From Candidatus Parcubacteria bacterium (GTDB taxonomy: Bacteria > Patescibacteriota > Minisyncoccia > JACPXH01), in assembly GCA_016196625.1 (NCBI GenBank), contig JACPXH010000024.1, forward strand, positions 1,206 to 65,205: 64,000 nt of DNA. Reading direction: 5' to 3'. A model generated the notes under the pieces. The model saw only the letters and a list, made by a program, of their open reading frames with translations. It was not told where the DNA came from and searched no databases. Shown here one piece after another: positions 37,944-55,273 of the stretch (position 1 is its first letter; every line of letters starts with the position of its first letter). Position numbers and translations under genes: made by a program.

Positions 37944-37952
37944 GGGGCGGTA

Positions 37953-38112: not shown

Positions 38113-38236
38113 GGGGTCAACCCCGTTAGAAGTTCAACCACGAATCTGTTTTCGAGGGAACCAAGAGGCGAAGCCGACTACGTCTTATAAACATGCCTCA
38201 TAAGTCGGTCTAACTGAAACTTCTAACGGGGTCAAG
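38113..38236. mobile_element. MITE-like element, variant copy 1, with terminal inverted repeats CCCCGTTAGAAGTT...AACTTCTAACGGGG.
   Basis: 14-bp perfect TIR related to the ACCCCGTTAGAAAAC family at 40431, 52320 and 55171. The internal sequence is different. Confidence 0.5.
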
Positions 38237-38247
38237 TATTGGGGGCA

Positions 38248-38277
38248 TTGACAATGTATAGATTTGTTTGCTATAAT
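38248..38277 (+). promoter_or_regulatory. Consensus promoter TTGACA, 18-bp spacer, TATAAT, upstream of gene 38420.
   Basis: Exact hexamers. Confidence 0.4.
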
Positions 38278-38419
38278 GTAAGAGGAAAATGAAGGCCTAG
38301 GAAATTGGCTCTACGGCTCAATGGTGGGCCAGACGAGCCGAAATCCGAGGCCAGTCCTTTGAGAGTTCGGTGCGGTTGGCTTTGCGGCGACCAGACGGTC
38401 TGCCGCGAAAGGAGGAGCC

Positions 38420-39076
38420 ATGAAGAAGATGAAGATGATGTTGGCGTGGGTGGTGTTGGCGGTCGCGATCGTCGCGGCCGCGCCCATCGGGGCGTGGGCC
38501 GCGGGGTACGAGACCCGGTCCGGGTCCACCTCGACCAGCACGACGGACACTGTGTCCGGCGTGCCGGTGCCCGGGGGCGGGACCCGGAACACGTCCACTT
38601 CGAACTCGTCCAGCGATTCGTTCTCCCGTTCCCGCCCGGTGTACGATGGCTGGGAGCGGGCGAACATGACGGCCTCGACGGCCGTCAACGTCGTGGGGGC
38701 CATGCAGAGTATCACAGGCCTCTTCGGCGGAATGGCGGCCGGGCCGGTCGTGGCCACCCCGACGGGCGTTTACGCGCCCAACGGGAACGGCGGCTACGGC
38801 GGCTATTACGGCGGCGGGTACTACGGCGGTGGGCAGCAAGTTCCGCCGCTCGTGTACCAGCGGACCGTCAGCACCGCGGGCCCGCCGGCTCCGATCTGTT
38901 ATACTTACGCCGGGGTCTGTGACGTATGGACCCCGCAGGGGTGGCAGAGGGTTCCGATGCCGGCAACGCAGCCGGCCCCGATGCCGACCGTTACGGCCCA
39001 AGTCGGTCCGCGCTGCGGCTACGAGCAGCGGACCGACGGCCACGGGTTCTACTGGCAGGAGTACGTTTGCCGGTAG
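38420..39076 (+). CDS. Secreted Ser/Thr/Gly/Tyr-rich protein with a YGGYYGGGYYGGG segment and 4 C-terminal Cys.
   Basis: Signal peptide MKKMKMMLAWVVLAVAIVAAAPIGAWA; strong SD AAAGGAGGAG. Confidence 0.5.
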   Translation: MKKMKMMLAWVVLAVAIVAAAPIGAWAAGYETRSGSTSTSTTDTVSGVPVPGGGTRNTSTSNSSSDSFSRSRPVYDGWERANMTASTAVNVVGAMQSITGLFGGMAAGPVVATPTGVYAPNGNGGYGGYYGGGYYGGGQQVPPLVYQRTVSTAGPPAPICYTYAGVCDVWTPQGWQRVPMPATQPAPMPTVTAQVGPRCGYEQRTDGHGFYWQEYVCR

Positions 39077-39114
39077 GGCCGCGGCCCACCGTTCCTTTCC
39101 GTAGTTCTCTCTCC

Positions 39115-39150
39115 GAGGCGCCTTGCGCAAGCAAGGCGCCTCTTTCTTTA
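39115..39150 (+). terminator. Rho-independent terminator (GAGGCGCCTTGC-GCAA-GCAAGGCGCCTC followed by TTTCTTTA).
   Basis: 12-bp perfect stem plus T-run. Confidence 0.55.
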
Positions 39151-39290
39151 CTCCTCGTTAAGCGACGGGGAGAGCTTCGCTCGAAGAATAACCGAGGCGG
39201 GACAGTTTCCAGATGGTCATAAGACAACTTGACGTCCTCGGCCACGGTCGGTTAGCATCAGTTATTAACAGTTGTTACCTGCCTTTCGCT

Positions 39291-39599
39291 ATGAGAACAC
39301 ACCGAACCATGACAGTTTCGCTCCCGCCTGAGATGGTGGCGGATATCGAGAAGGTCCGGCGAACAGAGCGGCGCACCCGTTCGGAACTGGTTCGCGAGGC
39401 GCTGCGCGTGTATTTCGATAGGATCCGCACGCTTCCGGTGTACACCCCCACTCGTCAGGAGCTCCGAGAGATAGAAAAAGGTCGGGCAGAAATGCGCCGA
39501 GGAAATTACTACACCCTCGATGAATTCAGTCGGTGGCTCTTGGGGCGTCCACATAAAAAAAGCCGCGCAAAAACGGTTGCGGCGCGCCCCGAGGCCTGA
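39291..39599 (+). CDS. Ribbon-helix-helix (CopG/Arc-type) antitoxin.
   Basis: MTVSLPPEMVADIEKVRRTERRTRSELVREALRVYF matches the RHH pattern; start MRTHRT (track ORF from 39213). Confidence 0.55.
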   Translation: MRTHRTMTVSLPPEMVADIEKVRRTERRTRSELVREALRVYFDRIRTLPVYTPTRQELREIEKGRAEMRRGNYYTLDEFSRWLLGRPHKKSRAKTVAARPEA

Positions 39600-39804
39600 G
39601 CGGGAACGGCTCGACGCGGCGCTCAGGCAGATGCAGCGAGACCCCTTTGGGGGCGACGTAGAACGTTTGGTTTATCAACCCACTGCCTTTCGGCGTCGCG
39701 TCGGTGATTGGCGGATTTTCTTTGACGTGGATTTCTCGCGCCGGCTTGTGGAAGTGCGCCTCATCGAACGTCGCGCCACGAGCACGTATCGGCGCCGCAA
39801 GTGA
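39520..39804 (+). CDS. RelE/ParE-family type II toxin.
   Basis: C-terminal VGDWRIFFDVDFSRRLVEVRLIERR matches the ParE/RelE core. Overlaps the antitoxin; an alternative TTG start lies at 39574. Confidence 0.5.
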   Translation: MNSVGGSWGVHIKKAAQKRLRRAPRPERERLDAALRQMQRDPFGGDVERLVYQPTAFRRRVGDWRIFFDVDFSRRLVEVRLIERRATSTYRRRK

Positions 39805-39912
39805 CCAAATGGACGTTGGGGAAATGAGATTATTTATCCCTGGGCGTTTATAATTTCCCCGTCCTTATGACGATGAGTCGGGGCCTTTTTTATTTCTGCC
39901 CCGCTTGCTAGA

Positions 39913-40425
39913 TTGTGGAGGATGCAGGCGTATGAAATTGAGCTTCGCGGCGAGCGTGCCACGCGCAAAGCCGGCCAGATCTTGGGCGAGCTCCTGCGCC
40001 AGCAGCCGACAGGCAAGCGGGACTTCGTGCTCGCGCTCGAAGGCGAGCTCGGCGCGGGCAAAACCACTTTTATCCGTGGTCTTGCCAAGGGCCTCGGCAT
40101 CCGCTCCAAAATCACCAGCCCTTCGTTTCTTGTCGCGAAGCGATACACCATTCCCTCGGCCCGTACGCGCCGGAGATCCTTCGGGCTTCGCCCTCAGGAT
40201 GACGGGAAGGGGAGAGTGTTTTGGCATTTTGATTTCTACCGTCTAGAACGCCCCACGCAGCGCGACCTTGAGCTCCTCAATTTCCATCAAATCCTGAGCG
40301 ATCTCCACACCATCGTCGCGATTGAGTGGGCGGAGCGGGCTATGCATTCTTTGCCCGAGAAACGACTTACCCTTCGCTTCACCACTTTGAATTCAAGGGC
40401 GCGAAAACTCATTGTTTCAGAATGA
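39913..40425 (+). CDS. tsaE: tRNA t6A37 threonylcarbamoyladenosine biosynthesis protein TsaE (YjeE-type P-loop ATPase).
   Basis: Walker A LEGELGAGKTTFIRGLAKGLG and the conserved SPSF motif. Confidence 0.65.
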   Translation: MWRMQAYEIELRGERATRKAGQILGELLRQQPTGKRDFVLALEGELGAGKTTFIRGLAKGLGIRSKITSPSFLVAKRYTIPSARTRRRSFGLRPQDDGKGRVFWHFDFYRLERPTQRDLELLNFHQILSDLHTIVAIEWAERAMHSLPEKRLTLRFTTLNSRARKLIVSE

Positions 40426-40430
40426 CAAAT

Positions 40431-40534
40431 GTCAACCCCGTTAGAAAACAAGATTTTGTTTCATCGAAAGCAAGAACTCTTTAGTAGACTGACGGGCCGG
40501 AGAAAGTACGACCAACGAGTTTTCTAACGGGGTC
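40431..40534. mobile_element. MITE-like TIR element, copy 2 (TIR ACCCCGTTAGAAAAC ... GTTTTCTAACGGGGT).
   Basis: Near-identical to copies at 52320-52422 and, in reverse orientation, at 55171-55273. Confidence 0.6.
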
Positions 40535-40607
40535 AAAGCTCAAATGGCAAATCAAAAGTTCAAATGTCAAAAAAGCGTTTTGGATTTTGTCGTTTGGATT
40601 TTTGGTG
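40535..40607. repeat. Heptamer-array repeat, copy C, abutting TIR copy 2 and ending 3 nt before the polA start codon.
   Basis: GTCAAAG CTCAAAT GGCAAAT ... TTCAAAT GTCAAAA, then the inverted half. Confidence 0.55.
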
Positions 40608-40610
40608 ATT

Positions 40611-43232
40611 ATGTCTATGCGCAAAGTGCCGACCAAGAAAAAAACCGTTGTCCTCATTGATGGCCACGCGCTCATCCACCGCGCCTACCACGCGCTCCCG
40701 CCGCTTACGGCAGCGGGCGGAGAAGTTGTGAACGCGGTGTACGGGTTCGTATCGTTGTTGTTCAAAATGTATGAGGACTTGAGGCCCGATTACGTGCTGG
40801 CCGCCTTTGATCTGCCCGGCCCCACGTTTAGGCACGAGGCCTTTGAAGCTTATAAAGCCCAGCGCGCCGAGACGCCTTCGGACTTGGACAGCCAGTTTCC
40901 CAAGGTTAAAGAGGTCCTTCACGCATTCAACGTGCCGGTGCTCGAAGCCGAAGGGTTTGAGGCCGATGACGTGATCGGAACGCTCGTCGAAAAACTTGAG
41001 GAGCGCGATGATGTTCGGCTTGTAATTCTCACGGGCGACCTCGACACGCTCCAGCTGGTCTCGAGTAAAACCTCGGTCTATACGTTGAAGCGCGGTATGT
41101 CCGAGACCGTTGAATACACACCCCAGGCAGTGCGGGAGCGCTACGAAGGTTTGAAGCCAAGCCAAGTCGCGGATTTGAAGGGACTCAAGGGTGATCCATC
41201 GGATAATATTCCGGGCGTGCCCGGGGTGGGGGAGAAAACCGCTATTCAGCTGTTGCAGAATTTTGGGACGATTGAAAAACTGTACGCGGTTCTCGAAAAC
41301 ACAAAGCCCAAAACACAAAGCCCAAACAAAGCCCAGAGTACAAAACTGTCGCCGAAACTGGTTGAAAAATTGTTAGCGAATAAAGATCAAGCGTTTTTTT
41401 CCAAAGAGCTCGCCACGATCCGGCGCGACGCGCCGATTCGATTCCGGTTGGAAGACGCGTCGGTCAAAGGCATTGATCGCGCTAAGATATCGGCGCTGTT
41501 TAAGCGCTTTGGGTTCTACACGCTCTTGAAGCGTCTGCCCGGCGAACTCAAGGCCGAGGCGCCGCAAATTGAAACGCGCGAGGCCGCAGCCACCACCATC
41601 GCGAAAACCGCAGGCACCTTAGCGCTGGCACTCACCGACTCTGGCACGCTCGACGTCGCGAGTTCCAAGCATGCAGCGACTACGGTGGGTTTTGGGGACA
41701 TTCCGCCCGAACTGCGCGCCACTCTTTCATCAGCGAACGTGGTGAAAATCTTCCACGACGCCAAGTCAATCTTGAAGCTGCTCCGCCGCGCCGGCGTCAA
41801 TGTACGGGGCGAGCCGCCAGCCGGCGGATTCGACACCATGGTTGCGGCCTACCTGCTTGCCCCGGGCAGCCGCGATTACTCCCTCGAGCGCCTTGCCTTC
41901 CGCGAATTTCGCCGCACGCCCGGCACGCTGACACATCCGGCCTGCCTCGCCTTCGAGCTGGCCGAACCGCTGAAAACTAAGCTCGAGAAAGCTGGCGCGT
42001 GGCCGCTTTTTCAAAAGATCGAAATGCCGCTCGTCCCCATCCTGGCCGAGATGGAAGAAGCGGGGATCACGGTTGATGCCACTGCGCTCCGGGAACTTTC
42101 GAAAACGCTCTCGGCCGAGCTCAAAAAACGCGCGGCTAAAATCTACAAGCTGGCGGGCGAAGAGTTTAACGTCAATTCCACCCAAGTCTTGCGCAAAATC
42201 CTCTTTGAAAAACTTCAGCTTTCAGTCAAAGGCTTGAAGAAAACCCCGACTGGCGAACTCTCCACGGCCGCGGGCGGCCTTGAGAAGCTCCGCGAGGTCC
42301 ACCCCATCGTGCCCCTTATTTTGGAGTACCGCGAAATTTTTAAAATCAAATCCACTTATGCGGATGCGCTCCCCGAGCTCTTGAGTCCCGAGACCGGGCG
42401 TGTGCACACGACCTTCAACCAGACCGTAGCCGCAACTGGCAGACTGTCTAGTTCAGATCCCAACCTCCAGAACATTCCCACCTTCGGCGAATACGGTCAG
42501 GCAATCCGGAATGCGTTCATGGCGGCCAGGGGCTATACGCTCCTTGCGTGCGACTACTCGCAGCTGCAGCTTAGAATTGCGGCCTCGCTCGCTAAAGACG
42601 AAAAGATGTTAGCTGCCTTCAGGGCAGGCCGCGATATTCATGCGCTTACCGCGGCTGAAATTTTCGAAGTACCCATTGGGAAAGTAACCCCAGAGCAGCG
42701 TCGGGAAGCGAAAGCGCTCAATTTCGGGGTTCTCTACGGCATGGGTGTGACCGGCTTTGCCGAGTCAGCCGGCATTGAACGGCAGCGCGCCAAAGAGTTC
42801 ATCGAGCGCTACAAACGTGAGTTTTTCGGCATCTCGGTATATATGGAAGCAGTGAAAATGCAGGCGCGTAACCTTGGCTACGTCGAAACCTTGCTTGGCC
42901 GCAGGCGGTATCTGCCCGAAATTCTGTCCCCCAATAATATGCTTGAGGCCGCGGCTGAACGCATGGCCATCAATCATCCGATTCAGGGGCTGGAGGCGGA
43001 TATCGTAAAACTGGCGATGATCGAGATTGGCAAACTGCTCCGCGGGCGCGAAGAAGATTGTCGTATGCTGCTGCAAGTGCACGACGAACTGGTGTTTGAA
43101 ATTAGGCCGGAATTTGTGGCGGAGCTGGCGCCAAAGATTCTTGCGGCCATGGAGGGCGTGTTTACCCTTGAAGCACCGCTGGTGGCCGAAGCAAAAGCCG
43201 GAAAGCGGTGGGGGAACATGGAGGAATTTTGA
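40611..43232 (+). CDS. polA: DNA polymerase I (5'-3' exonuclease, 3'-5' exonuclease-like and polymerase domains).
   Basis: Pol A motifs DYSQLQLR and QVHDELVFE; N-terminal 5' nuclease. Start set at the ATG at 40611; the track ORF has a TTG at 40587 inside the repeat. Confidence 0.9.
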   Translation: MSMRKVPTKKKTVVLIDGHALIHRAYHALPPLTAAGGEVVNAVYGFVSLLFKMYEDLRPDYVLAAFDLPGPTFRHEAFEAYKAQRAETPSDLDSQFPKVKEVLHAFNVPVLEAEGFEADDVIGTLVEKLEERDDVRLVILTGDLDTLQLVSSKTSVYTLKRGMSETVEYTPQAVRERYEGLKPSQVADLKGLKGDPSDNIPGVPGVGEKTAIQLLQNFGTIEKLYAVLENTKPKTQSPNKAQSTKLSPKLVEKLLANKDQAFFSKELATIRRDAPIRFRLEDASVKGIDRAKISALFKRFGFYTLLKRLPGELKAEAPQIETREAAATTIAKTAGTLALALTDSGTLDVASSKHAATTVGFGDIPPELRATLSSANVVKIFHDAKSILKLLRRAGVNVRGEPPAGGFDTMVAAYLLAPGSRDYSLERLAFREFRRTPGTLTHPACLAFELAEPLKTKLEKAGAWPLFQKIEMPLVPILAEMEEAGITVDATALRELSKTLSAELKKRAAKIYKLAGEEFNVNSTQVLRKILFEKLQLSVKGLKKTPTGELSTAAGGLEKLREVHPIVPLILEYREIFKIKSTYADALPELLSPETGRVHTTFNQTVAATGRLSSSDPNLQNIPTFGEYGQAIRNAFMAARGYTLLACDYSQLQLRIAASLAKDEKMLAAFRAGRDIHALTAAEIFEVPIGKVTPEQRREAKALNFGVLYGMGVTGFAESAGIERQRAKEFIERYKREFFGISVYMEAVKMQARNLGYVETLLGRRRYLPEILSPNNMLEAAAERMAINHPIQGLEADIVKLAMIEIGKLLRGREEDCRMLLQVHDELVFEIRPEFVAELAPKILAAMEGVFTLEAPLVAEAKAGKRWGNMEEF

Positions 43233-43262
43233 ACTTTGCATTTTTAACTTTTCATTTCTTTT

Positions 43263-44072
43263 GTGCCTGAATTGCCCGAAGTCGAAACCACCGTGCGCGC
43301 GCTCAACCGTGCCATTGCTGGTCGGCGGATTCGTTCGGCGTGGGTGGGTTGGCGTCGGCTCTTTGAGCGTTCGCCCGAGCGCCGCGCTCTGCCCGCCGCG
43401 CTTGTCGGCAGGCGGATTTATCGCGTTGACCGTACTGGCAAGTTCGTCTGTTTTCGGTTTGCGAGCGGGGCAACTTTGGCGCTCCACCAAAAAATGTCTG
43501 GTCGGATCACGATTGGCGCGCCGGATCAGTACGCGCGTTTTACGCTCACGCTTGATGACGGCCGGCAGGTGGTTTTTTCCGACAAGCGTAAATTCGGCCG
43601 GGGGTACTTTTACCGACGAGCAATCGGCGAGCCGCTCACTGGTCTCGGGCCTGACGCGGCGGCGCTGGCCGCGGACCCAGCAGCGTTCGGGCAGCGTCTA
43701 GCGGCGCGCCGCGGGCGCATCAAATCCGTGTTGCTGAATCAAGCCGTAGTCGCCGGGATTGGCAACATCTATGCGGATGAGATTTTGTGGCGCGCCAAGA
43801 TTCATCCCGTTCGTCTCGCCTCGGTCTTAACTACTGTTGATCACCGTCGCCTGGCCGCGGCCACGCGCGCCGTGCTTGGGCAGGCGATGCGGCGGGGCGG
43901 GACGAGCTTTCGCGATTACCTTGATCCAAATCTGCGCCGCGGTACGTATTGGACCGTGCGCGCTGTCTATCAGCGAGCCGGCGAGCCATGCCGGCGTTGC
44001 CGTACGTCTATCCAGAAGGCAACAGTTGGCGGTCGCGGTACGCACTACTGTCCAACCTGCCAACGGGTTTAA
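43263..44072 (+). CDS. mutM: Formamidopyrimidine-DNA glycosylase (Fpg/MutM).
   Basis: N-terminal (M)PELPEVET and a C-terminal zinc finger CRRCRTSIQK...CPTC; GTG start. Confidence 0.85.
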   Translation: MPELPEVETTVRALNRAIAGRRIRSAWVGWRRLFERSPERRALPAALVGRRIYRVDRTGKFVCFRFASGATLALHQKMSGRITIGAPDQYARFTLTLDDGRQVVFSDKRKFGRGYFYRRAIGEPLTGLGPDAAALAADPAAFGQRLAARRGRIKSVLLNQAVVAGIGNIYADEILWRAKIHPVRLASVLTTVDHRRLAAATRAVLGQAMRRGGTSFRDYLDPNLRRGTYWTVRAVYQRAGEPCRRCRTSIQKATVGGRGTHYCPTCQRV

Positions 44073-44084
44073 AATGGGAGCAGC

Positions 44085-45158
44085 ATGAAGTCTCGACGCC
44101 GCCAGATTTTCTTGGCCGTTTCGGTTCCGCTCATGGCGCTGGGGCTGTTAGCTGTTTTTCTGTATGCGCGCGGCCGGTTTGCCGTGGTTAACCGCGGCGC
44201 TGCCGGTGCGCCCGCGACCTCGTCCGTTGCGGCAACGCCCACAACCACAAGCCCCTTCACTGGTCTGCCGTGCCCAAACGCCAAGAGTCGGCCCTTGGCC
44301 GTGATGCTCTCGGAAGACGATGCCGCGCGGCCGCTTTCGGGCATTACCAAGGCTGATCTGGTGGTGGAGATGCCGGTGGTAACCGGGTTGGTCAATCGTT
44401 TGATGGTGGTCTACCAGTGCGAAAGTCCCGCTGAGATCGGCTCGGTGCGTTCGGCCCGGCACGACTTTATCCCGATTGCGGCAGCTTTAGATTCTATTTA
44501 TGCCCACTGGGGCGGATCGCATTTTGCGCTCGAGCAACTGAACCAGCATGTTATTGACAATATAGATGCCTTGCCCAACCCGGCCGACGCGTTCTTTCGA
44601 AAAAAGAACATCCGCGAGCCACATAATGGCTTCACGTCGAGCGAGCGTCTGCTGCGGGCGAGCCGCACGCTTGGCTATCGGACCGAGCTTCGCGACAATG
44701 TCGGCTACCCGCATGCTTCGGCGGGCTCGGCCCAAGCTGCGGGCACCACGACCGCCGAGGCAGTAGGGCAGCCGGGGGATCTCACGATAGGCTACCCCAA
44801 TTCGTTCGAGGTGCGGTTTCACTACGACCCGCAGTCCAAGCAATACCTGCGCTTTCGCGACGGCCGGGCCGAGCGCGACAAACTGGACGCCTCGCAAGTG
44901 GCGGTGGCCACTGTGGTGGTGATGCGAGCGGTTTCCTATCAGATTGAAGGCGAATACAACACAGTAAAAATTGAAGGGGAGGGTCAAGCCGCTTTTTACC
45001 TCAATGGCCAAGAGATCCGGGGTCGGTGGCAGAAAGATCGGGCCACGCGCGAAAGCCCGCTCAAGTTTTTCGACAGTCAAGGTCGGGAGGTGTTGTTTCA
45101 ACCGGGCAAGATTTGGATCGCGGTCATCGAACCGGACCGGCCGGTTACGTGGCGCTGA
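44085..45158 (+). CDS. Secreted/lipoprotein-like conserved hypothetical protein (DUF3048-like).
   Basis: N-terminal TM/signal; domain call from memory only. Confidence 0.35.
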   Translation: MKSRRRQIFLAVSVPLMALGLLAVFLYARGRFAVVNRGAAGAPATSSVAATPTTTSPFTGLPCPNAKSRPLAVMLSEDDAARPLSGITKADLVVEMPVVTGLVNRLMVVYQCESPAEIGSVRSARHDFIPIAAALDSIYAHWGGSHFALEQLNQHVIDNIDALPNPADAFFRKKNIREPHNGFTSSERLLRASRTLGYRTELRDNVGYPHASAGSAQAAGTTTAEAVGQPGDLTIGYPNSFEVRFHYDPQSKQYLRFRDGRAERDKLDASQVAVATVVVMRAVSYQIEGEYNTVKIEGEGQAAFYLNGQEIRGRWQKDRATRESPLKFFDSQGREVLFQPGKIWIAVIEPDRPVTWR

Positions 45159-45162
45159 ACCA

Positions 45163-46137
45163 ATGGTAATTTTTCTTTTTGGTCCAGACACCTTCCGGAG
45201 CCGCGAGAAACTGCGGCGTGTCGTGGTACAGTACCAAGATAAAGTTCCAGAAGCCTGGGGGCTGGCGCGGTTCGCCGGGGGTGAGCTAACCGGGGTAGAC
45301 ATTGGCGTAGCACTGCGGGGCAACTCGCTCTTCCAGAGAAAACGTCTGGTCGTTTTTGAGCGTCCGGACGAAAGCCCAGCTGAAATTCAAGCGCAGCTGA
45401 TGGCTCTGTTGGGATCGCGTGAGCTTATCGAGTCAACGGATACTGTGGCCGTGGTGTGGTTTTCTGGTTCTCTCCAAAAGGGGTCGGATTTCGCGCGGCT
45501 GGCCGCGCGCAAAGGTATCCGGGTTGAATCGTTTGAACTCCTTGGGGGCGCTCCCCTCAAGCGTTGGATTGGGGCGTACGCTCGCGAGCTCGGCGCGACC
45601 ATCGAGGCCGGAGCGGTGGCTGCGCTCGTGGCAGCGTGCGGCGCTGACACCTGGCGGCTCGCCCTGGAACTGGAAAAGCTGGTTTCGTACGCGGCGGGTA
45701 AGGCAGTCAGCACAGCTCATGTGGCCGCGCTTGTGGTGCAGCCGGCCAGCCCGCACGCGTTTGCTTTGGCCGATGCAGTGGCCAAACGAGATCGGTCCAG
45801 GGCCCTCGAGCTTTTACACGAGCATCTGGAGGCTGGCGACTCTCCGCAGGCGCTCGTGGGGATGATGGCCTACGCGCTGCGCACGCTTGTTCTCGTGCGC
45901 GCGGCCTCGGTTGAACCAGCGGTGCACAAGTCAGGACCGCCAACAGCCATGCTTGTCAAAACCCTCGACTTACACCCTTTTGTTGTTGCCAAAGCCCTCC
46001 GGCACATTGAGCAATTTACGCAACCAGAACTCCGCCGGGCAATCCAGTTTCTCGCCGACACGGATTGGCGCATGAAAACCGGCCGGCTCGACCCCGCGTT
46101 AGCACTTGAGCGATTCGTGGTGGCGGTAACCAAGTAA
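45163..46137 (+). CDS. holA: DNA polymerase III delta subunit.
   Basis: N-terminus MVIFLFGPDTF...; about 325 aa; start set at the internal ATG 45163. Confidence 0.65.
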   Translation: MVIFLFGPDTFRSREKLRRVVVQYQDKVPEAWGLARFAGGELTGVDIGVALRGNSLFQRKRLVVFERPDESPAEIQAQLMALLGSRELIESTDTVAVVWFSGSLQKGSDFARLAARKGIRVESFELLGGAPLKRWIGAYARELGATIEAGAVAALVAACGADTWRLALELEKLVSYAAGKAVSTAHVAALVVQPASPHAFALADAVAKRDRSRALELLHEHLEAGDSPQALVGMMAYALRTLVLVRAASVEPAVHKSGPPTAMLVKTLDLHPFVVAKALRHIEQFTQPELRRAIQFLADTDWRMKTGRLDPALALERFVVAVTK

Positions 46138-46190
46138 CAAGTTTAGGCGATCGCCTGAAAATGTTTTGAGTGGCGGGAGGCAAAAAGTAG

Positions 46191-47631: not shown

Positions 47632-47921
47632 GGCTTCCCTCCGTGGCTATGGGGTTATGGGAAAGGACTTTCCGCTTCGTTTGGCGTACCCCGGTGCGAC
47701 AACTTCGATTGTGCCCAGCGGGCACCCCGATTTCCCTTACTTAGGCTAAGCTAAAGCATTTTTACGGCAATACCAGTGTTTTTAATCCCAGCAATCGGCG
47801 TCTCCATCGAGAGAGTTGTAGCACCGGGTACGGTAACAGGATTTCGGATAGCGCGCAAGCCCACTGTTTCGTCAAGGCTTCGCAGTGCAAGTACATCGAA
47901 ATACAGCAGCCATGCAGCCGG

Positions 47922-50900
47922 TTATCGCCTTCGCGTCCGTACAGTCCGAATCGGCGCTGCTTCGAGATCAAGAATCGCATCGCGCAGTTTTGCCGCTTCT
48001 TCAAACCGCCAGTGCCGGACTGTCTCGGCGAGTGCTTGCTTGAGTTGTTTCACCGCAGCTTCACGGTTCTTCGCGTGTTCGGGGTGGCTGCGGATGAGGC
48101 TAACCGTACGTTCAATCACGCGCTCGGCTGCGGTTTCTTTTTCTTCTTCGCGCTTGCGCTGGACGATCAACTCGCGGATTTCTTTATCGATGGATTTGGG
48201 TGTGATGCCGTGTTTTTGGTTATACGCTTCCTGAACCGCGCGTCGGCGCTCGGTCTCCTCAATTGCGGCTTTCATGGACTTGGTAATGCGATCCGCGTAC
48301 AAAATTGTAGTTCCTTCGACGTGCCGCGCCGCCCGGCCCATGGTTTGGATGAGCGTGGTCGTATTACGCAAAAATCCTTCTTTGTCCGCATCTAAAATTG
48401 CCACGAGCGACACCTCGGGAAGGTCCAATCCCTCGCGGAGTAAATTGATGCCGACCAGCACGTCGTATGCGCCAAGCCGAAGGTCGCGCAGGATTTCGGG
48501 CCGGACCAGCGTGTGCAGGTCAGAGTGGAGATACTGCGCTTTGACGCCCTGCTCGGCGAGGTAGTCAGATAATTCCTCCGCCAAGCGTTTGGTCAGCGTG
48601 GTTACGAGCACGCGCTGTTTGTTTGCCACTCGTTTTTTAATCTCGGAAATTACGTCCGCTACCTGATTTTTTGCGGGCCGCACGTCAACAATCGGGTCAA
48701 GCAGGCCCGTGGGTCGCACGAGCTGTTCGGCAACACGATCTGCCGATTGGTTGAGTTCGTAGGCAGCCGGCGTTGCTGACACGTAGACGGTTTGGCTTAC
48801 CTTCGCACGAAATTCGTCAAACATGAGCGGTCGGTTGTCCACCGCAGAGGGGAGTCGAAATCCGTGTTCTACGAGCACGGTCTTTCGAGATTTGTCGCCC
48901 GCATACATGCCGCGGATTTGCGGGATCGCGAGGTGGGATTCGTCAATGAATACCAAAAATCCATGCGGCGTTCTACCAGTTGCGGCGCGAAAATAGTCGA
49001 GAAGTGTTGAAGGCGGCGAGCCGGCAGGCCGAAAATCAAGGTGGCGCGAATAGTTTTCAACGCCAGAACAGTAGCCCGTCTGCTCCAACATTTCGAGATC
49101 ATACGTGGTGCGTTGTTCGAGGCGCTCCGCTTCAAGGAGCTTACCAGAAGCGTTGAGCGCGTGGAGCCGTTCGCGTAGTTCTGCGCGGATATTGGCAATG
49201 GCGAGGGTGAGTTTGTCCTGCGGGGTTACGAAATGTTTGGCCGGGAATACTTTGACCTCGTTCAGTTTCGTGCCGGCCGCATTTGCTTTGGCGATTCCGG
49301 CGTCAAAACGGCGGATGGTTTCAAGTGCGTCCCCAAACCACTCCAGTTTCAAAAACCATCCTCCTTGCGGCGGATAGATTTCGAGCGTGTCTCCGGCCAC
49401 GCGGTACTGTCCCGGCAGGGGATCGAGGTCGTTTCTCTCGTATTGCAGGAGTGCCAGATGTTTTAACACCTGCCGCAGTTTCGTAGGCTGGCCGGTTGAA
49501 AGCGTCAAGCTAATTTTTTCGTATTCTTCCGGATTGCCGATGCCGTAGATGCAGGAAACCGAAGCCACCACGATCACGTCTGGCCGCGAGAGCACGTCAG
49601 CGGTTGCCGCGTGCCGCAAGCGGTCAATTTCTTCGTTGATTTTGGCGTCCTTTTGGATGTACGTGTCGGTCTGCGGGATGTACGCTTCGGGCTGGTAGTA
49701 GTCGTAGTAGGAGACGAAGTAATGGATCGCGTTTTCCGGAAAGAACTCACGGAACTCTTGGTACAATTGCGCGGCGAGGGTTTTGTTCGGGGCGATCACG
49801 AGCGCTGGCCGATTTGCGCGCGCAATCACGTTCGCCATGGTGAAGGTATTGTGGACAAAGATGCCGCCCGTTCCCGCAAAAAATGTTTCGTTGTCTTGCA
49901 CCGCTAAGTCGTACACGTACTCTGCGGCATTGGTTTTCTCGATCGTTTGTATTGGCGTCCAGAAGAGCTGGAGGAGGCTAGCGCAGACCTCAACTTCTTG
50001 TACCATATTAGCTCGACGACGTGTTGCCGCGTATTCTCGTAGGTTCCCGAGAAGTCTCTCAAACACTTCTCGTGAGGGCAGACGATGGCCATGTTCGATA
50101 AGCGAGATGAGCGACCGTGAGACACCGGCGGCGTGCGCGATATCGCGTTGTCGCAACGCAAGCTCCGTTCGAATCTTTTTTAGCCACGCACCATCGATCG
50201 GGACCACGTCAACATTGGTGTTGTACGGTTTGCGAACAAGTAGGTCGAGCCCCCGTTGCTTTTTAGCTATCACAAAACCTATACGTTCTTTGAATGCTCG
50301 CAAGAACTTTTGCCCGGAGATGCGAACTGTCCGGTATTCGCGTCGTTCATTGCTAGCTGGCAATTTCATGTACCGCGTGCGTACTCTCGTTACGATTCCG
50401 AACCGGAGCAGCGCATACGCGAGGTCAGAAGCGAGTTGAGCGCTTGCCGTCATGCATGTTACTTCGCTCCCATCCACGCCTCCATCAGTAGAGAAGTAGG
50501 CGCGGAGAATGTCTGCTAAACGAACATTGGAGAGTTGCGGCCAGAATTTTGGGAGCCGTTTGGTCTGCGCATTACGGCCGCAGTTATGCGCAAGTAGCTC
50601 CCTCCAAAATGTTGAAGAGATTTGATAGTCGTAGGTGTGTGGTCGTCTGGTCCACCTTAGGCCTAGTTGGTGGAGGGTCTGGGTAAAATCGGTGATGATT
50701 TCTGGGTCAGCTGACGAAATGACGAAGTATTTGTCTGCCGCGTGTCCTTCCGCGATGTAGTAGCCAATAAAACGGCAGAAGTCATCGGTGAGCGGTTGGC
50801 GGAGAGGAGCTTGGTAATCTCGACCGTAGACTCCGACGGTAGCACCGTGGCGGAGATCTGGGATTACGGCAGCGAGTCGCTGGTATAGTTCAAAAGATGA

Positions 50901-51605
50901 TCGTTCGTCGTGCTGGAGAAGGTTATGAATTTTCGTCGGCGTGAGCAGAGGTCTAAGCAACGATTCTTGCGTTGTCCATACGTTAGCAAAGCGAGGCATT
51001 GCTACATAGAGTTTCCGCTGTTTAGGGAGACATTCGGTGAGTTCAAGAGCTGTGAGTGGTTCGGGGGGCTCATCGAGCCGCAGGGGGACAGGGACGTAAT
51101 CAGCTGTGGTAAGCGCCTCAGTTTTTCTTAGGCATAGGACGCCGCGGCGCAACACAAAAAAGTTGTGGTCGCCCGTAACCGTTATGTGCCGACCGCATCT
51201 TGTGCGTACGGTATACAGACGAGCAGGAGATCGATGTCGGATGAACTGCACAATTGGTTTCCATCCTGCGCGTTTCGTGACCGGATCAAAACTATACGCT
51301 TCGTACCGATGGCCTTTATCGAGGTCGCGGGCGTCAATGATTTCGGTGTCCCCCGTATGTCGCTTTTTCTCGGGGAAACTGTCGAATAGTTGATCAATAA
51401 GTTCGCCAATGCCTTCGAGTGTTACGTCGCCGCCGCGCTTTATGAGGACAGGGGTTTCTTTCGTTAGGCTTTTGCCCGATCCGGTTACGCCCACGAGCGT
51501 TTGATCGCGCACGCCCGCAACAACGCCTCTTGTCAGGGCGTCTATTGCTTGTGGCTGATCTCCGGTGGGGGAGAATTTGCTCGAGAGCTTGAATGCTTGA
51601 CTCAT
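47922..51605 (-). CDS. uvrB: Excinuclease ABC subunit B, interrupted by a 541-aa intein; 1227-aa precursor.
   Basis: Exteins: N-terminal ...LVGVTGSGK | intein | TFTMANVIARANRPALVIAPNKTLAAQLYQEF..., then helicase motifs, UVR domain and a C-terminal coiled coil. Confidence 0.9.
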   Translation of the reverse strand: MSQAFKLSSKFSPTGDQPQAIDALTRGVVAGVRDQTLVGVTGSGKSLTKETPVLIKRGGDVTLEGIGELIDQLFDSFPEKKRHTGDTEIIDARDLDKGHRYEAYSFDPVTKRAGWKPIVQFIRHRSPARLYTVRTRCGRHITVTGDHNFFVLRRGVLCLRKTEALTTADYVPVPLRLDEPPEPLTALELTECLPKQRKLYVAMPRFANVWTTQESLLRPLLTPTKIHNLLQHDERSSFELYQRLAAVIPDLRHGATVGVYGRDYQAPLRQPLTDDFCRFIGYYIAEGHAADKYFVISSADPEIITDFTQTLHQLGLRWTRRPHTYDYQISSTFWRELLAHNCGRNAQTKRLPKFWPQLSNVRLADILRAYFSTDGGVDGSEVTCMTASAQLASDLAYALLRFGIVTRVRTRYMKLPASNERREYRTVRISGQKFLRAFKERIGFVIAKKQRGLDLLVRKPYNTNVDVVPIDGAWLKKIRTELALRQRDIAHAAGVSRSLISLIEHGHRLPSREVFERLLGNLREYAATRRRANMVQEVEVCASLLQLFWTPIQTIEKTNAAEYVYDLAVQDNETFFAGTGGIFVHNTFTMANVIARANRPALVIAPNKTLAAQLYQEFREFFPENAIHYFVSYYDYYQPEAYIPQTDTYIQKDAKINEEIDRLRHAATADVLSRPDVIVVASVSCIYGIGNPEEYEKISLTLSTGQPTKLRQVLKHLALLQYERNDLDPLPGQYRVAGDTLEIYPPQGGWFLKLEWFGDALETIRRFDAGIAKANAAGTKLNEVKVFPAKHFVTPQDKLTLAIANIRAELRERLHALNASGKLLEAERLEQRTTYDLEMLEQTGYCSGVENYSRHLDFRPAGSPPSTLLDYFRAATGRTPHGFLVFIDESHLAIPQIRGMYAGDKSRKTVLVEHGFRLPSAVDNRPLMFDEFRAKVSQTVYVSATPAAYELNQSADRVAEQLVRPTGLLDPIVDVRPAKNQVADVISEIKKRVANKQRVLVTTLTKRLAEELSDYLAEQGVKAQYLHSDLHTLVRPEILRDLRLGAYDVLVGINLLREGLDLPEVSLVAILDADKEGFLRNTTTLIQTMGRAARHVEGTTILYADRITKSMKAAIEETERRRAVQEAYNQKHGITPKSIDKEIRELIVQRKREEEKETAAERVIERTVSLIRSHPEHAKNREAAVKQLKQALAETVRHWRFEEAAKLRDAILDLEAAPIRTVRTRRR
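49848..51470 (-). mobile_element. Intein (541 aa) inserted in the UvrB Walker A motif (GSGK/TFT). It begins with Ser and ends ...FVHN before +1 Thr. It contains LAGLIDADG-type homing-endonuclease blocks (FIGYYIAEGHA, YFSTDGGVDG) and an Xre-type HTH (LRQRDIAHAAGVSRSLISLIEHGH).
   Basis: Boundaries computed from extein alignment logic and ORF coordinates. Confidence 0.75.
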
Positions 51606-51689
51606 AACCTACTTTGTGATACAGATTCTACCCGCTGATTGCCGCTGTCACAAACCGCTTCCAGACTTAATTTGGGAGCAAAGAGGAGG

Positions 51690-51944
51690 ATGTGTACCTT
51701 GAAAATCCGGATGGGGCGATACAGGGATAAGCCGGACGTTGACTGGTCTCGATACGCCAAGAAGTCTGGCACTGGCGAGGACTCCGATGGGCTCTCTCCG
51801 AGCAGAGCAGCCAACAGTACCGAGGGTCGATGGCATTACCATGCATGGGTAGAAGAAGGAACTGCCGAGGAGGAGGAATGCTACCATCTAATTCCGGCTA
51901 ATTCCGGGGGGCGAATACACGCAAGGAACGGTGTGTCATCCTGA
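51690..51944 (+). CDS. Candidate small protein (about 81-84 aa; ...RWHYHAWVEEGTAEEEECYHLIPANSGG...). AGAGGAGG abuts the ATG, so an in-frame TTG at 51699 may be the real start.
   Basis: ORF track (51639 TTG start); low-GC region, by eye. Confidence 0.25.
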   Translation: MCTLKIRMGRYRDKPDVDWSRYAKKSGTGEDSDGLSPSRAANSTEGRWHYHAWVEEGTAEEEECYHLIPANSGGRIHARNGVSS

Positions 51945-52245
51945 CGTGCACGACGTCGAGATCGCCTCGGAGGCAGTCGAAGTTCCTGAGGCCATCGTGA
52001 AAATGGTCGAAGCCCTGGAGTCATTCTATGACGAGTTGGTCCCGGAGCACGAGAACGATCCCCGCGACGTTTTCGTTGACGGTCTGAAGCGGGCATTGCT
52101 CCAGGCCTACGCCATGGGCGCTCAAGACAGTGCGCCGATGTACTTCAAGCCTCGTTTCGAACACGTGGAGCAAGACGAAGGTTATGGGTTTTTTTCGAGA
52201 GAGCACAGACTCGCTCCGCTCTTCGCCAAAAAGACGGCGCGCTAG
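51931..52245 (+). CDS. Candidate small acidic protein (104 aa from a GTG; alternative ATG at 52003).
   Basis: ORF track; followed by a clear terminator. Confidence 0.3.
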   Translation: MCHPDVHDVEIASEAVEVPEAIVKMVEALESFYDELVPEHENDPRDVFVDGLKRALLQAYAMGAQDSAPMYFKPRFEHVEQDEGYGFFSREHRLAPLFAKKTAR

Positions 52246-52282
52246 TCCCGAATGGTACGGCGGGGCCCACCACCGCTCGCAA

Positions 52283-52320
52283 CCGCCGGAGTCGCAACTC
52301 CGGCGGTTTCTCTTTTCTTG
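52283..52320 (+). terminator. Rho-independent terminator (CCGCCGGAG-TCGCAA-CTCCGGCGG followed by TTTCTCTTTTCTTG).
   Basis: 9-bp stem plus a long T-run. Confidence 0.6.
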
Positions 52321-52422
52321 ACCCCGTTAGAAAACAAGACTTTGTTTTATCGGGAATGGGAACTCTCTTCAGTAGACTGACGGATCGAAGAAAGCACGGC
52401 CAACGAGTTTTCTAACGGGGTT
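52320..52422. mobile_element. MITE-like TIR element, copy 3.
   Basis: GACCCCGTTAGAAAACAAGACTTTGTTTTATCG...CAACGAGTTTTCTAACGGGGTTG; about 85-90% identical to copy 2. Confidence 0.6.
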
Positions 52423-52455
52423 GAAAAAAGAGCCAGTTCGCGCCATGATGAGGCG

Positions 52456-53037
52456 ATGATCGGTTTTGTTGAAGGCACGGTGGCCGGCCGCGAGGATTCG
52501 GCTCTACTGCTTCAAGTGGGCGGCATTGGTCTGCGGCTCCTTGTGGGGCCGGAGAGCTTGGCGAAGATACCACAAAATGGTACCAGAATAAAGGTTTGGA
52601 CGCACCTTGCGGTGAGCCAGTTTTCGTGGACGCTCTACGGGTTTTTGACCGTTGAATCATACGAACTTTTTCAACTGTTTCTTGAAGTGCCCGGATTCGG
52701 ACCGCGCCGGGTGCTTGGCATGGTGGATGGCGCGGATCCGGCCAAAGCGCGCGCAGCCATTGAAGCAGAAGACAACGAAGAATTGGCACGGATTTGCGGC
52801 ATCTCGGTTACTACGGCAGAAAAGCTTGTGGTGGGACTTCGTCGGGTTCGGAAACCCGCTGGCAAAAAATCTCCAAAAACTGCGAACGCCGCGGTTAATT
52901 CTGATCAGCGTATGGTTGAGGAAGCGCTCGTTTCTTTGGGCTACGGCAAAACCGAAGCGCGCGAAGCTGCGGCAGCTTCGTCTGGCGTGAGCGTGGAAGC
53001 GTGGGTGCGGGCGGCGCTAAGGCGAGCAAAGAAATAA
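52456..53037 (+). CDS. ruvA: Holliday junction DNA helicase subunit RuvA.
   Basis: N-terminus MIGFVEGTVAG..., HhH motifs, C-terminal domain III. Confidence 0.85.
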   Translation: MIGFVEGTVAGREDSALLLQVGGIGLRLLVGPESLAKIPQNGTRIKVWTHLAVSQFSWTLYGFLTVESYELFQLFLEVPGFGPRRVLGMVDGADPAKARAAIEAEDNEELARICGISVTTAEKLVVGLRRVRKPAGKKSPKTANAAVNSDQRMVEEALVSLGYGKTEAREAAAASSGVSVEAWVRAALRRAKK

Positions 53038-53145
53038 AACTCTTGAAGCAGCATGTCGAAGTTGCGGAAAACAAGCCGGCCGCCGCACTCCCTCAGCGAT
53101 CATTCGCTCGTCCAGCGACTCGCTCACTCTGTCCTCGCTAGCCGA

Positions 53146-53285
53146 GCCGCCGCAGTCGCGTCGCGCGGCGTCGCGCAGGCCGAGCGGGCAGGGTCTCCGC
53201 CAGCAGGCGGAGGAGCGAGGCCGAGCGAGAGTGCGGCCTGCTCGCTGGGCGGGCCGACACGTCCGTGCGACGCGACTGCGGCGGC
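53146..53285. repeat. GC-rich nested-hairpin element downstream of ruvA. A 19-bp perfect inverted repeat (GCCGCCGCAGTCGCGTCGC at 53146-53164 and its complement at 53267-53285) encloses inner hairpins CTCCGCC-AGCA-GGCGGAG (53195-53212) and AGGCCG...CGGCCT (53218-53239). Contains the AGGCCGAGCGGGCA core.
   Basis: Read directly. Related to the element at 62585-62722. Confidence 0.5.
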
Positions 53286-53377
53286 TACCATGCCGGCTAG
53301 CTGCGGATGTCGCTTCGGGAGTGTGGCGGCCGGCCATACTTCCTGACGAGGATTACGCGTGAAGCGGAAGTCTAAGT

Positions 53378-53998
53378 ATGGCTACCTTACTCCTTATTAT
53401 CTCGCGGCTCGGCCTTGCCTCCCTTATTGGCTTTGAGGGTTTGAACTGGATCGGCGTGCTTGATTTCACGCTCGATTTCAGCTGGCTTGGGCTCATCGTG
53501 ACGGCGGTGGCCGTGGTTGCGTTTTTGGAGGGCGCTGCGTTTTTACTCAAGCGCACAACCGGCCGCGGCCTGCATCCGGTGGCCTACTTTGCCGGAGCGG
53601 CAGGGCTGGCGTTTGACGCCATCGGCGACATAGCCCACCTTTACGGTCGTTTCGCCTGGTACGATCAAGTCGCGCATTTCCTCGGCGGGGCGGTGGTGGG
53701 GATTGTGGCGTTTAACGTGCTTTGGCAGCTTGAGCAGGCTGGGCGAATGCGGCTCGGTGCGGGGTGGCGGAGTCTATTCGTCGTTTCGATCGGAGCGTTC
53801 TTCGGCAGTTTGTATGAGATAGAGGAGTACCTTGAAGACCTTTGGAAGTGGCACCGGCAGGTGCGCTTGGGCGATGGGCCGGATACGGCAAACGACCTCT
53901 TGTTTAATATCGTCGGGGCCATCGCGGTGGTGGCGGCCGTCGTTCTCTGGCAGCGGCTACGGGCGCGGAGTTCGGCACGAGAATATGTCCCTGATTGA
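53378..53998 (+). CDS. Hypothetical polytopic membrane protein (206 aa).
   Basis: ORF track; about 5 TM helices. Confidence 0.45.
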   Translation: MATLLLIISRLGLASLIGFEGLNWIGVLDFTLDFSWLGLIVTAVAVVAFLEGAAFLLKRTTGRGLHPVAYFAGAAGLAFDAIGDIAHLYGRFAWYDQVAHFLGGAVVGIVAFNVLWQLEQAGRMRLGAGWRSLFVVSIGAFFGSLYEIEEYLEDLWKWHRQVRLGDGPDTANDLLFNIVGAIAVVAAVVLWQRLRARSSAREYVPD

Positions 53999-55097
53999 TC
54001 CCACAGCGTGGAACGGAGCGATCCTCGGGCACCCGGATGGTTCTTTCTTGCAGTCGTACGAGTGGGGTGAGTTTCAGCAAGCGTACGGCCGTCCGGTCTT
54101 TCGTTTTGCCTTGGCCTCTGGCGCGCGCGTACAGGCCGTGTGCATGCCGCTCCCGTTCGGGTTTTCGTATGCGGGCGTGAGCCGTGGGCCGGTGGGGGAG
54201 GTGAGACCGGTTGAGTTGAGGCTCGGCCTTGCCCAACTGACTGCCTTGCCGTCCTTGGTCTTTGTGCGCTTCGAGCCGTCTTGGTCCTCAGAGCGGAGAC
54301 ACGAATTTGCCGCCGCCGGTTTCTTGAGAACAGTGCCGACGCAGCCGGAGATGACGTGGGTAGTTGATCTGGGTGTATCCGAGCACGATGTGCTTAGCGG
54401 CATGCATCCAAAAACTCGTTACAACATTCGCTTGGCACAGCGGCACGGCGTAGAGATTATTGAGACGGGTGCGGCCGGATTTAAAGTGTTTCGTGATCTG
54501 CTCCGGCAAACAGGAGAGCGCGAAGGTTTTCGCACGCACGATCCGCGCTACTACGAACTTATGGCCGAACACCTTCTTGTCGAAGCTCCCAGGCCGCCCT
54601 TTGTCAAGCCGCAGGCGCGAATCTTTTGCGCGCAGTATCGCGGCGACGTGCTGGCCGTTGCGTTTATCCTCTTTTTTGGGCAGGAAGCAGTGTACCTGCA
54701 TGGCGGCTCGGCTGCGCAGTACCGCGACGTGATGGCGCCACATCTGCTGCATTGGGAAATCATTCGGCGCGCCAAAGCGCTTGGGTGCACCAGGTATAAT
54801 CTGTGGGGCATCGCCCCGCGAAGCGGGGCGATGGCTAGTCCGCATGACCAAGCCCGAAGGGCTTCAAGCGGGGCGATGGCTAGCGCTTGGCGCCAAGCCC
54901 GAAGGGCTTCCAGCGACGCAATGTATCCATGGCAAAGCGAGCAGATGAAGCAGTGGGCCGGCTTTACCCGTTTCAAACAGAGTTTCGGCGGCCGACCGGT
55001 CGAGTACATGGGGGCGTGGGACTTGCCGGTGCGGTCTACGTGGTACCGTCTCTACCAGTTGGCGAGACGTATTCGAAGGCAGGCTGTCTTCTTTTAG
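53985..55097 (+). CDS. FemAB-family peptidoglycan peptide-bridge aminoacyltransferase (lipid II amino-acid transferase-like). It contains an in-frame 45-bp tandem duplication.
   Basis: N-terminus MSLIDPTAWNGAILGHPDGSFLQSYEWGEFQ typical of FemABX; start set at the internal ATG 53985. Confidence 0.55.
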   Translation: MSLIDPTAWNGAILGHPDGSFLQSYEWGEFQQAYGRPVFRFALASGARVQAVCMPLPFGFSYAGVSRGPVGEVRPVELRLGLAQLTALPSLVFVRFEPSWSSERRHEFAAAGFLRTVPTQPEMTWVVDLGVSEHDVLSGMHPKTRYNIRLAQRHGVEIIETGAAGFKVFRDLLRQTGEREGFRTHDPRYYELMAEHLLVEAPRPPFVKPQARIFCAQYRGDVLAVAFILFFGQEAVYLHGGSAAQYRDVMAPHLLHWEIIRRAKALGCTRYNLWGIAPRSGAMASPHDQARRASSGAMASAWRQARRASSDAMYPWQSEQMKQWAGFTRFKQSFGGRPVEYMGAWDLPVRSTWYRLYQLARRIRRQAVFF

Positions 55098-55170
55098 GCA
55101 GCAATCCAGATGGCAAAATCCAAAGCGTTTTGATATTGGAGTTTTAGATTTGTTTTGGCATTTGAGCTTC
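55098..55170. repeat. Heptamer-array repeat, copy D (the inverted counterpart of copy C), abutting TIR copy 4.
   Basis: ATCCAGA TGGCAAA ATCCAAA GCG, then TTTTGAT ATTGGAG TTTTAGA TTTGTTT TGGCATT TGAGCTT. Confidence 0.55.
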
Positions 55171-55273
55171 GACCCCGTTAGAAAACTCGTTGGCCGTACT
55201 TTCTCCGGCCCGTCAGTCTACTAAAGAGCTCTTGCTTTCGATGAGACAAAATCTTGTTTTCTAACGGGGTTGA
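55171..55273. mobile_element. MITE-like TIR element, copy 4, in reverse orientation relative to copy 2.
   Basis: Its reverse complement is nearly identical to 40431-40534. Confidence 0.6.

Follow-up and report, generated by a model that had tools for sequence, protein, structure and literature searches.

Ssn proteins are single-domain GIY-YIG nucleases of about 94 residues (CDD cd10448) that bind hairpin repeats flanking their own genes, known as NTS/dRS3 in Neisseria and as 'Ssn-related motifs' elsewhere, and whose cleavage is limited to single-stranded DNA (Chenal et al., Nat Commun 2025, PMC11893778). The authors of that study liken the NTS-ssnA-NTS arrangement to an insertion sequence, and the sections of their text considered here report no target duplication, empty sites or nested insertions (PMC11893778). 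Ssn/NTS is the closest known system to the elements described here: four intergenic repeats in a stretch of 64,000 nucleotides of a Candidatus Parcubacteria genome (GenBank assembly GCA_016196625.1, contig JACPXH010000024.1, positions 1,206 to 65,205 of the forward strand; hereafter the window). These repeats are miniature inverted-repeat transposable elements (MITEs), i.e. mobile DNA whose insertion duplicates 4 bp of a T-N-N-A target. Their ends recur in other bacterial phyla and there also bracket ~280-bp units whose only gene encodes an 86-residue GIY-YIG protein. We assign a probability of roughly 0.6 to the reading that the window elements are MITEs of this superfamily moved in trans by the nuclease of such units.

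Four repeats of the window and their sites of insertion

The 15-mer ACCCCGTTAGAAAAC has six matches in the window, which form three inverted pairs (Table 1); shuffled sequences lead one to expect 0.12 matches and none of 100 shuffles reaches six. The 11-mer CCCCGTTAGAA, with one mismatch tolerated, has eight window sites against 0.76 expected and contributes just one further pair, 38121-38131/38221-38231. The four elements delimited by these pairs are 97-111 nt long and have room for no open reading frame (ORF). Copies 2-4 possess perfect inverted ends of 14-15 nt and cores of 83-94% identity: copies 2 and 4 are 94% complementary across 138 nt, with about 15 nt of flank per side counted in, copy 3 is 83-89% identical to copy 2, and the core of copy 4 is inverted relative to those of copies 2 and 3. 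An initial annotation of the window had described three copies with perfect 15-bp terminal inverted repeats (TIRs) and about 85-95% identity, copy 4 being reversed; all of this agrees with our measurements, and its coordinates are right within a few bases. Its fourth, variant member at 38.1 kb (copy 1) indeed has a different core, unrelated to those of the other three and a singleton in the core clustering described below. The full TIR that it was said to share is not there: the end sequence common to copy 1 and copies 2-4 is limited to CCCCGTTAGAAG, and copy 1 has a repeat of its own, CCCCGTTAGAAGTT, the terminal stem of which is present in both DNA and RNA folds.

As annotated, each of the four copies is intergenic, with housekeeping genes as neighbours. 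Copy 1 separates divergent genes and closely precedes a consensus promoter; copy 2 separates tsaE (stop at 40425) from polA (start at 40611); copy 3 is 35 nt upstream of the ruvA start (52456); and copy 4 is flanked by FemAB (stop at 55097) and a Mur ligase gene (start at 55287). The promoter next to copy 1 is a perfect sigma-70-type match (TTGACA, 18 nt, TATAAT, with an upstream TG), which is outside the element, 13 nt past its right target duplication.

The tetramers that flank copies 1-4 are TCAA/TCAA, TCAA/TCAA, TTGA/TTGA and TCGA/TTGA, respectively. Among relatives from many phyla, identical 4-mers are found immediately outside CCCCG...CGGGG in 75 of 124 elements, against 13.7 +/- 3.2 expected from random re-pairing of the flanks (2000 trials, maximum 26). 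Positions 1 and 4 of these tetramers are mostly T and A. Where T..A is present on both sides (n=90 pairs), the middle two bases match directly in 68 pairs and in the inverted sense in only 4; therefore, the flanks are duplicated and not part of the inverted repeat. Target-site duplication, which the initial annotation had suggested looking for, is thus seen in the window and is statistically overwhelming in its relatives.

Insertion is further witnessed by a filled/empty pair. Two relatives of the window, L332 and L333 (~84% nucleotide identity, DnaA 92%), have a 72-nt family member, flanked by CTTG and TTTG, at the site orthologous to a single TTTG of the window (Table 1). The alignment here contains one clean 76-nt gap, corresponding to the 72 nt of the element plus 4 nt, and the BLAST segments that abut at window 13049-13054 are 72 nt apart in L332: hence, this is a presence/absence polymorphism of a MITE at an orthologous site, with the window empty and L332/L333 filled. 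A 26-nt hairpin in L332 (10206-10231) is not counted as a second pair of this kind, since the intergenic sequence around it aligns poorly with the window. Three more sites give direct evidence of insertion. The flanks of copy 4, minus one 4-mer, align without a gap to a MITE-free paralogous palindrome of the window (37951-38010). In L329, a 100-bp MITE interrupts the end of another element (CCCCGT-TAGA-G), with TAGA on both sides. In L322, deletion of the element and one TGAA gives back ...AAAATGAAAATC..., a canonical ATGA stop/start overlap that joins a methyltransferase gene and a glycosyltransferase gene of an operon.

Copies 2 and 4 also adjoin a second family of intergenic repeats, which are long imperfect palindromes of CAAA/TTTG-like units (Table 1). 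Three of these four palindromes form long hairpins (-39.9, -37.6 and -20.5 kcal/mol; z -3.1 to -4.6), while the stretch at 55098-55172 folds no better than shuffled sequence (-14.3 kcal/mol, z 0.17). Because copies 2 and 4 occupy equivalent relative positions inside such palindromes, both may go back to a single insertion, copied at a later time together with its palindrome.

Table 1. Repeats, insertion sites and neighbouring features, in coordinates of the window
Feature	Positions	Length (nt)	Strand	Sequence	Remark
Inverted pairs of the 15-mer	40435-40449/40519-40533, 52321-52335/52407-52421, 55172-55186/55256-55270			ACCCCGTTAGAAAAC	site search
MITE copy 1 (variant core)	element 38121-38231; with duplication 38117-38235	111	.		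sequence read, site search
Copy 1 inverted ends	38121-38134 and 38218-38231			CCCCGTTAGAAGTT	
Copy 1 target duplication	38117-38120 and 38232-38235			TCAA	
MITE copy 2	element 40436-40532; with duplication 40432-40536	97	+		
Copy 2 inverted ends	40436-40449 and 40519-40532			CCCCGTTAGAAAAC	
Copy 2 target duplication	40432-40435 and 40533-40536			TCAA	
MITE copy 3	element 52322-52420; with duplication 52318-52424	99	+		
Copy 3 inverted ends	52322-52335 and 52407-52420				
Copy 3 target duplication	52318-52321 and 52421-52424			TTGA	
MITE copy 4	element 55173-55269; with flanking 4-mers 55169-55273	97	-		
Copy 4 inverted ends	55173-55186 and 55256-55269				
Copy 4 flanking 4-mers	55169-55172 and 55270-55273			TCGA and TTGA	3/4 positions agree
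Empty target site	13050-13053		.	TTTG (single)	between two Wzy_C-type genes
Sigma-70-type promoter	38248-38277				
CAAA/TTTG-like palindromes	7946-8062, 37948-38080, 40533-40608, about 55100-55170				second repeat family
Low-GC region	18400-20400				dnaA and start of dnaN (dnaN to 21266)
UvrB gene with intein	47922-51605		-		ORF of 1227 aa

A superfamily with conserved ends and unrelated cores

We scanned one genome per species for CCCCGTTAGAA-N60-90-TTCTAACGGGG and recovered at least 120 loci from many phyla; hence, the ends that the initial annotation had recognized in the window are conserved well beyond it. Among the matches listed (80 titles), about 26 are from the Candidate Phyla Radiation (CPR)/Patescibacteria, 13 from Planctomycetota, 15 from Desulfobacterota or 'delta', 4 from Omnitrophota and 4 from Nitrospirota, in addition to Cloacimonadota, one Clostridia metagenome-assembled genome (MAG) and several unclassified bacteria. 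The 129 elements compared fall into 105 core clusters, 96 of which are singletons: the cores are unrelated from genome to genome. The elements range from 29-nt bare hairpins up to ~110 nt, and nested and tandem arrangements occur. The superfamily is thus defined by a TIR of the form (C/T)CCCGTTAGA and a 4-bp duplication with a preference for T-N-N-A; it spans phyla, and the window elements belong to it. Even conservatively read, the identity of an 11-nt end in Patescibacteria, Planctomycetota and Desulfobacterota alike is an unusual indication that it has spread horizontally. In CPR bacteria, whose genomes are very small and in which few mobile elements are seen, family members lie within housekeeping operons without breaking them, namely between rplC and rplD, between etfB and etfA, and in glycosyltransferase operons.

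In a Bdellovibrionales MAG (L044 5057-5166), a CCCCGTTAGAA end pair surrounds an apparent complete tRNA gene, as judged by eye; because of this arrangement, the ends may sometimes capture or flank host genes. A scan of viral contigs for ACCCCGTTAGAAAT gave 120 hits, all but one of which are single chance matches; the lone extra site, in contig L235, is in coding sequence. A full-text literature search with the end sequence returned unrelated primers only, and a search for MITEs associated with IS1380 or occurring in Patescibacteria found nothing relevant.

Units that carry a GIY-YIG nuclease gene

One end pair, between the etfB stop and the etfA start of L024 (6919-7199), encloses a complete small GIY-YIG ORF. 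A metagenome scan with its protein product gave 80 loci at 58-80% identity with 84 ORF copies, 53 of which are bracketed by family ends in 44 distinct contexts. These units are 274-306 bp long, have a perfect inverted repeat mostly of 13-14 nt and share one layout: the left end, (C/T)CCCGTTAGAGAT, is followed by ~20 nt with a ribosome-binding site and then by the ATG of an 86-codon ORF, the only gene, whose last codons are the right end, ATCTCTAACGGG(G/A), so that the C-terminus S-L-T-G is encoded by the end itself. The first and last bases of the units co-vary (C/G 26, T/A 21, A/T 2). Two units carry CCCCGTTAGAAAT or TCCCGTTAGAAAAACC, equal to the end in the window, and more distant relatives of the protein have different but analogous, co-varying ends (TCCCGTACGAAAT, CCCTGTTAAATA and CCCGTCCCAAGG). 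Repeated recovery of the protein P0170 (identical protein, 46 index blocks, 24 contigs read) was not counted as many contexts: it represents one fixed insertion in one population.

A perfect 4-nt duplication flanks the unit in 19 of the 44 contexts (TGAA 9, TAAA 4, TTCA 2, and others). The stop codon of the nuclease ORF is often provided by the duplicated target (TGAA or TAAA): the right flank opens with a stop codon in 31/44 nuclease-unit contexts versus 44/125 coding-free elements. In a Portnoybacteria MAG (L328), a nuclease unit and a coding-free element of 100 nt, whose ends are similar, lie ~4 kb apart; this group is the source of the closest named matches of the window's DnaA. As to the cognate transposase that the initial annotation had suggested seeking elsewhere, these units with the same ends are a candidate gene-bearing partner, which specifies a GIY-YIG nuclease instead of a classical transposase. 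The target duplications, the filled/empty pair and the conserved ends all speak for the non-autonomous transposable element that the initial annotation had offered as one of two readings.

Elements at gene junctions (L322 1532-1815, L328 9979-10262 and about 14523-14627) show a further peculiarity. The upstream stop codon is retained in the left copy of the duplication, the nuclease ORF terminates on the TGA of the duplication, and in L322 and L328 the last base of the right end together with the TG of the duplication makes up the start codon (ATG or GTG) of the host gene that follows. Insertion looks built to spare operons.

The partner protein has GIY-YIG as its sole domain (86 aa; Pfam E = 5e-14). 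Its catalytic residues Y3, Y5, Y16, R26, H30, E50 and N76 are invariant in 30 homologues. The AlphaFold model (pLDDT 91.8) has the GIY-YIG fold and matches the structures of UPF0213 BH0048, Slx1 and I-TevI; the best solved relatives are the UPF0213 proteins 1zg2 and 1ywl. The nuclease is conserved and apparently active. Proteins 70-85% identical to it are labelled Omnitrophota, Flavobacteriales, Patescibacteria and Portnoybacteria, and a profile search recovered 13,758 cluster representatives at E <= 1e-3, of which 3,051 pass E <= 1e-10.

Two further loci contain other small genes near the elements. L119 (2680-2975) has a small GIY-YIG ORF that is more distant (49% identity) and precedes an imperfect hairpin, CCCCGTACTGAAC...GTTCTAGTATCGGGG, similar to the family ends; a MITE lies 250 nt beyond it. 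L329, a Patescibacteria contig that also has type IV secretion-like genes, carries four genes with the '23S rRNA intervening sequence protein' domain (1831-2235, 10398-11171, 15943-16335 and 19639-20019; three of 126-134 aa and one of 257 aa) scattered around its nuclease element; these may be another multi-copy selfish gene.

A candidate mechanism and alternative explanations

We infer that the GIY-YIG nuclease is the driver of the coding-free copies. Made elsewhere in the genome, it would mobilise them in trans. On the model of the Ssn nucleases, the two ends might pair into a stem in single-stranded DNA, for instance at a replication fork; the nuclease would then recognise this stem and cut at its base; and the element would insert at a break with a 4-nt stagger, which the host would fill and ligate, giving rise to the duplication. 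Several observations weigh against this proposal. GIY-YIG enzymes are hydrolytic and, to our knowledge, are not known for transposition or strand transfer. There is no GIY-YIG gene in the 64-kb window or in the dnaA regions of its relatives, and such a gene is within 8 kb at only 2 of 120 MITE loci. The link between the MITEs of the window and the nuclease is one of common ends and a common duplication pattern, drawn by sequence comparison. In 20 of the 44 nuclease-unit contexts the flanks match at two or fewer positions, and about half are without a perfect duplication. Further, the cut made by the characterised Ssn enzymes is several bases upstream of a compact hairpin, whereas the model proposed here needs one at the base of a stem that closes a loop of 70-280 nt, and the published Ssn-related motif does not match the family ends.

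A bolder form of the proposal, which we hold tentatively and at somewhat less than even odds, is that the MITEs of the window are footprints of a new transposon class, the autonomous element of which would be ~280 bp long with the 86-residue GIY-YIG protein as its sole product. Such a class, with the same reservation, would have spread across phyla and would insert at gene junctions, borrowing its stop codon from the duplication and rebuilding the start of its neighbour. We know of no insertion sequence as small as ~280 bp, and the transposase classes known to us (DDE, HUH, serine, tyrosine and Cas1) do not include GIY-YIG. Were the GIY-YIG protein to drive the elements, it would be a new enzyme class in DNA transposition and its unit would set a new lower size limit for an autonomous mobile element; the Ssn nucleases, whose role is currently understood only as transformation in Neisseria, would then gain a primary role as the engine of a selfish element.

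The most serious competing explanation, though in our estimate an unlikely one, is that the MITEs are moved by a conventional transposase, e.g. a DDE enzyme of the IS1380/piggyBac type, with the GIY-YIG gene as cargo or as a homing nuclease that colonised one MITE lineage. The 4-bp duplication with T...A symmetry and the ends starting with CC(C) recall IS1380 and piggyBac: the end of ISEcp1 is CCTAGATTCTACG with the flank TCATA, and that of piggyBac is CCCTAGAAAG with TTAA as target. Moreover, such duplications are known products of DDE enzymes and not of GIY-YIG enzymes, and an insertion sequence is often missing from MAGs. Nevertheless, in the 120 genome loci no end pair 0.7-3.5 kb apart encloses a long ORF, and no DDE transposase (Pfam PF13701/PF01609) was found between ends; two candidates for such a distant pair, in L091 and L106, turned out to be ribosomal-protein genes and a 308-nt element that is unrelated. 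A tblastn search with the ISEcp1 transposase (pC15-1a) finds nothing in the loci or the window, the homologue search with this protein returning only relatives at least 83% identical, with no reach to distant members. The nuclease ORF is fused to the ends in 44 contexts, with its C-terminus in the right end and a fixed ~20-nt leader, and the ends co-vary with the clade of the nuclease protein, an arrangement that one would not expect of cargo. Finally, binding to hairpins is documented for the related Ssn enzymes (PMC11893778).

Less probable still is that the repeats are host-domesticated hairpin sites, comparable to REP/BIME or to the NTS/dRS3 of Neisseria, which are no longer mobile and are kept for a cellular role, for example in controlling recombination or transformation, or in mRNA stabilisation or termination. 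This would agree with the intergenic location of all four copies beside housekeeping genes and with their very stable stems as RNA (-32 to -45 kcal/mol), and domestication of NTS-ssnA-NTS with a role in transformation is proposed in the Ssn paper (PMC11893778). Against it stand the filled/empty difference between genomes that are just ~16% diverged, the nested insertions and the lineage-specific cores, which argue for continuing turnover. A side effect of the elements on transcripts is possible, and domestication would for this reason overlap with mobilisation by the nuclease rather than replace it. The other reading of the initial annotation, in which the elements would specify small structured non-coding RNAs of one family, we regard as very improbable. 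Their folds do beat shuffled controls on both strands (z -3 to -6.8), but this stability derives from the TIR, and Rfam covariance models give no match in the whole window at gathering scores, with only noise for copy 2 at E up to 10. The covariation analysis that the annotation had suggested finds no covarying internal helix in the three copies (0/35 predicted pairs with a compensatory change, in a test that is weak with only three similar sequences), and some copies have such helices broken. Within one replichore, copy 4 has the reverse orientation of copies 2 and 3, and between lineages the cores are wholly different while the ends and flanking duplications are kept. We set this reading aside because the duplicated flanks and empty sites, which are signatures at the DNA level, decide the matter.

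Host genome and other features of the window

An exact-protein look-up found no record for the PolA, Mur ligase or DnaA of the window; in a similarity comparison, its DnaA is 100% identical to an NCBI protein labelled 'Candidatus Parcubacteria bacterium'. The closest matches of the window's DnaA that bear a more specific name are from Portnoybacteria, at ~60% identity. The dnaA and dnaN genes are at the GC-skew minimum; with the cumulative minimum near 21.6 kb, the replication origin is probably inside the window. The region of dnaA and the start of dnaN is low in GC (47-52% vs ~60% elsewhere). On the minus strand, an intein with LAGLIDADG and helix-turn-helix domains interrupts the UvrB gene (Table 1).

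Comparison with known systems

The Ssn/NTS system (PMC11893778) resembles the one presented here in having a single-domain GIY-YIG protein of ~90 residues, a gene bracketed by inverted repeats and many coding-free copies in the genome, as well as a similar YCCCG start of the stem (..TCATTCCCGCG.. in NTS vs ..TCAACCCCGTT.. here). It differs in the sequence of the end, and our elements show a target duplication, empty sites and nested insertions, which the sections of the Ssn paper considered do not describe. The ssn genes have a complete 20-50-nt hairpin on each side, whereas in our units single arms pair across the gene; therefore, the whole unit is one inverted-repeat element. The hosts differ too, the present elements being mostly in uncultivated CPR, Planctomycetota, Desulfobacterota and Omnitrophota. 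The published Ssn motif, HGTCWYN(0-2)YYVSBRHN(0-5)WNVSBRGN(0-2)RNCYNB, has no hit in the window, and the genome and GIY-YIG loci searched contain 5 (~0.005 per kb), a search in which the control, a canonical NTS, was found; when plasmids were searched by tblastn, the nuclease had two weak matches, and these did not connect it to Ssn.

The REP/BIME-RAYT (TnpA-REP) and IS200/IS605 systems likewise combine a small nuclease gene with flanking palindromic repeats that it is thought to spread, and share with ours a probable action on hairpins in single-stranded DNA. However, RAYT/TnpA are HUH tyrosine enzymes with covalent intermediates whose elements are without TIRs or target duplication; the elements described here, having inverted ends, a 4-bp duplication and a GIY-YIG partner, belong to neither. 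With IS1380/piggyBac they have in common a 4-5 bp T...A duplication and CC(C)-starting ends that contain TAGA, although the similarity of the ends is short and may be due to chance; those elements have a DDE transposase of at least 400 residues, none of which was found with the family ends.

In their overall form, the window elements are like the classical MITEs, such as Correia/NEMIS of Neisseria, RUP, ERIC and Nezha: these are 100-150 bp long with TIRs and a target duplication, and are intergenic, present in several copies and devoid of coding capacity. Classical MITEs, however, are restricted to a single genus or family and have insertion sequences of the DDE or IS200/IS605 type as their source. 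The present family has an identical 11-nt end in different phyla, and the one gene-bearing partner recovered for it codes for a GIY-YIG nuclease. It is this cross-phylum identity of the ends, together with the link to a ~280-bp unit with a nuclease gene and nothing else, that sets the family beyond the ordinary MITE.

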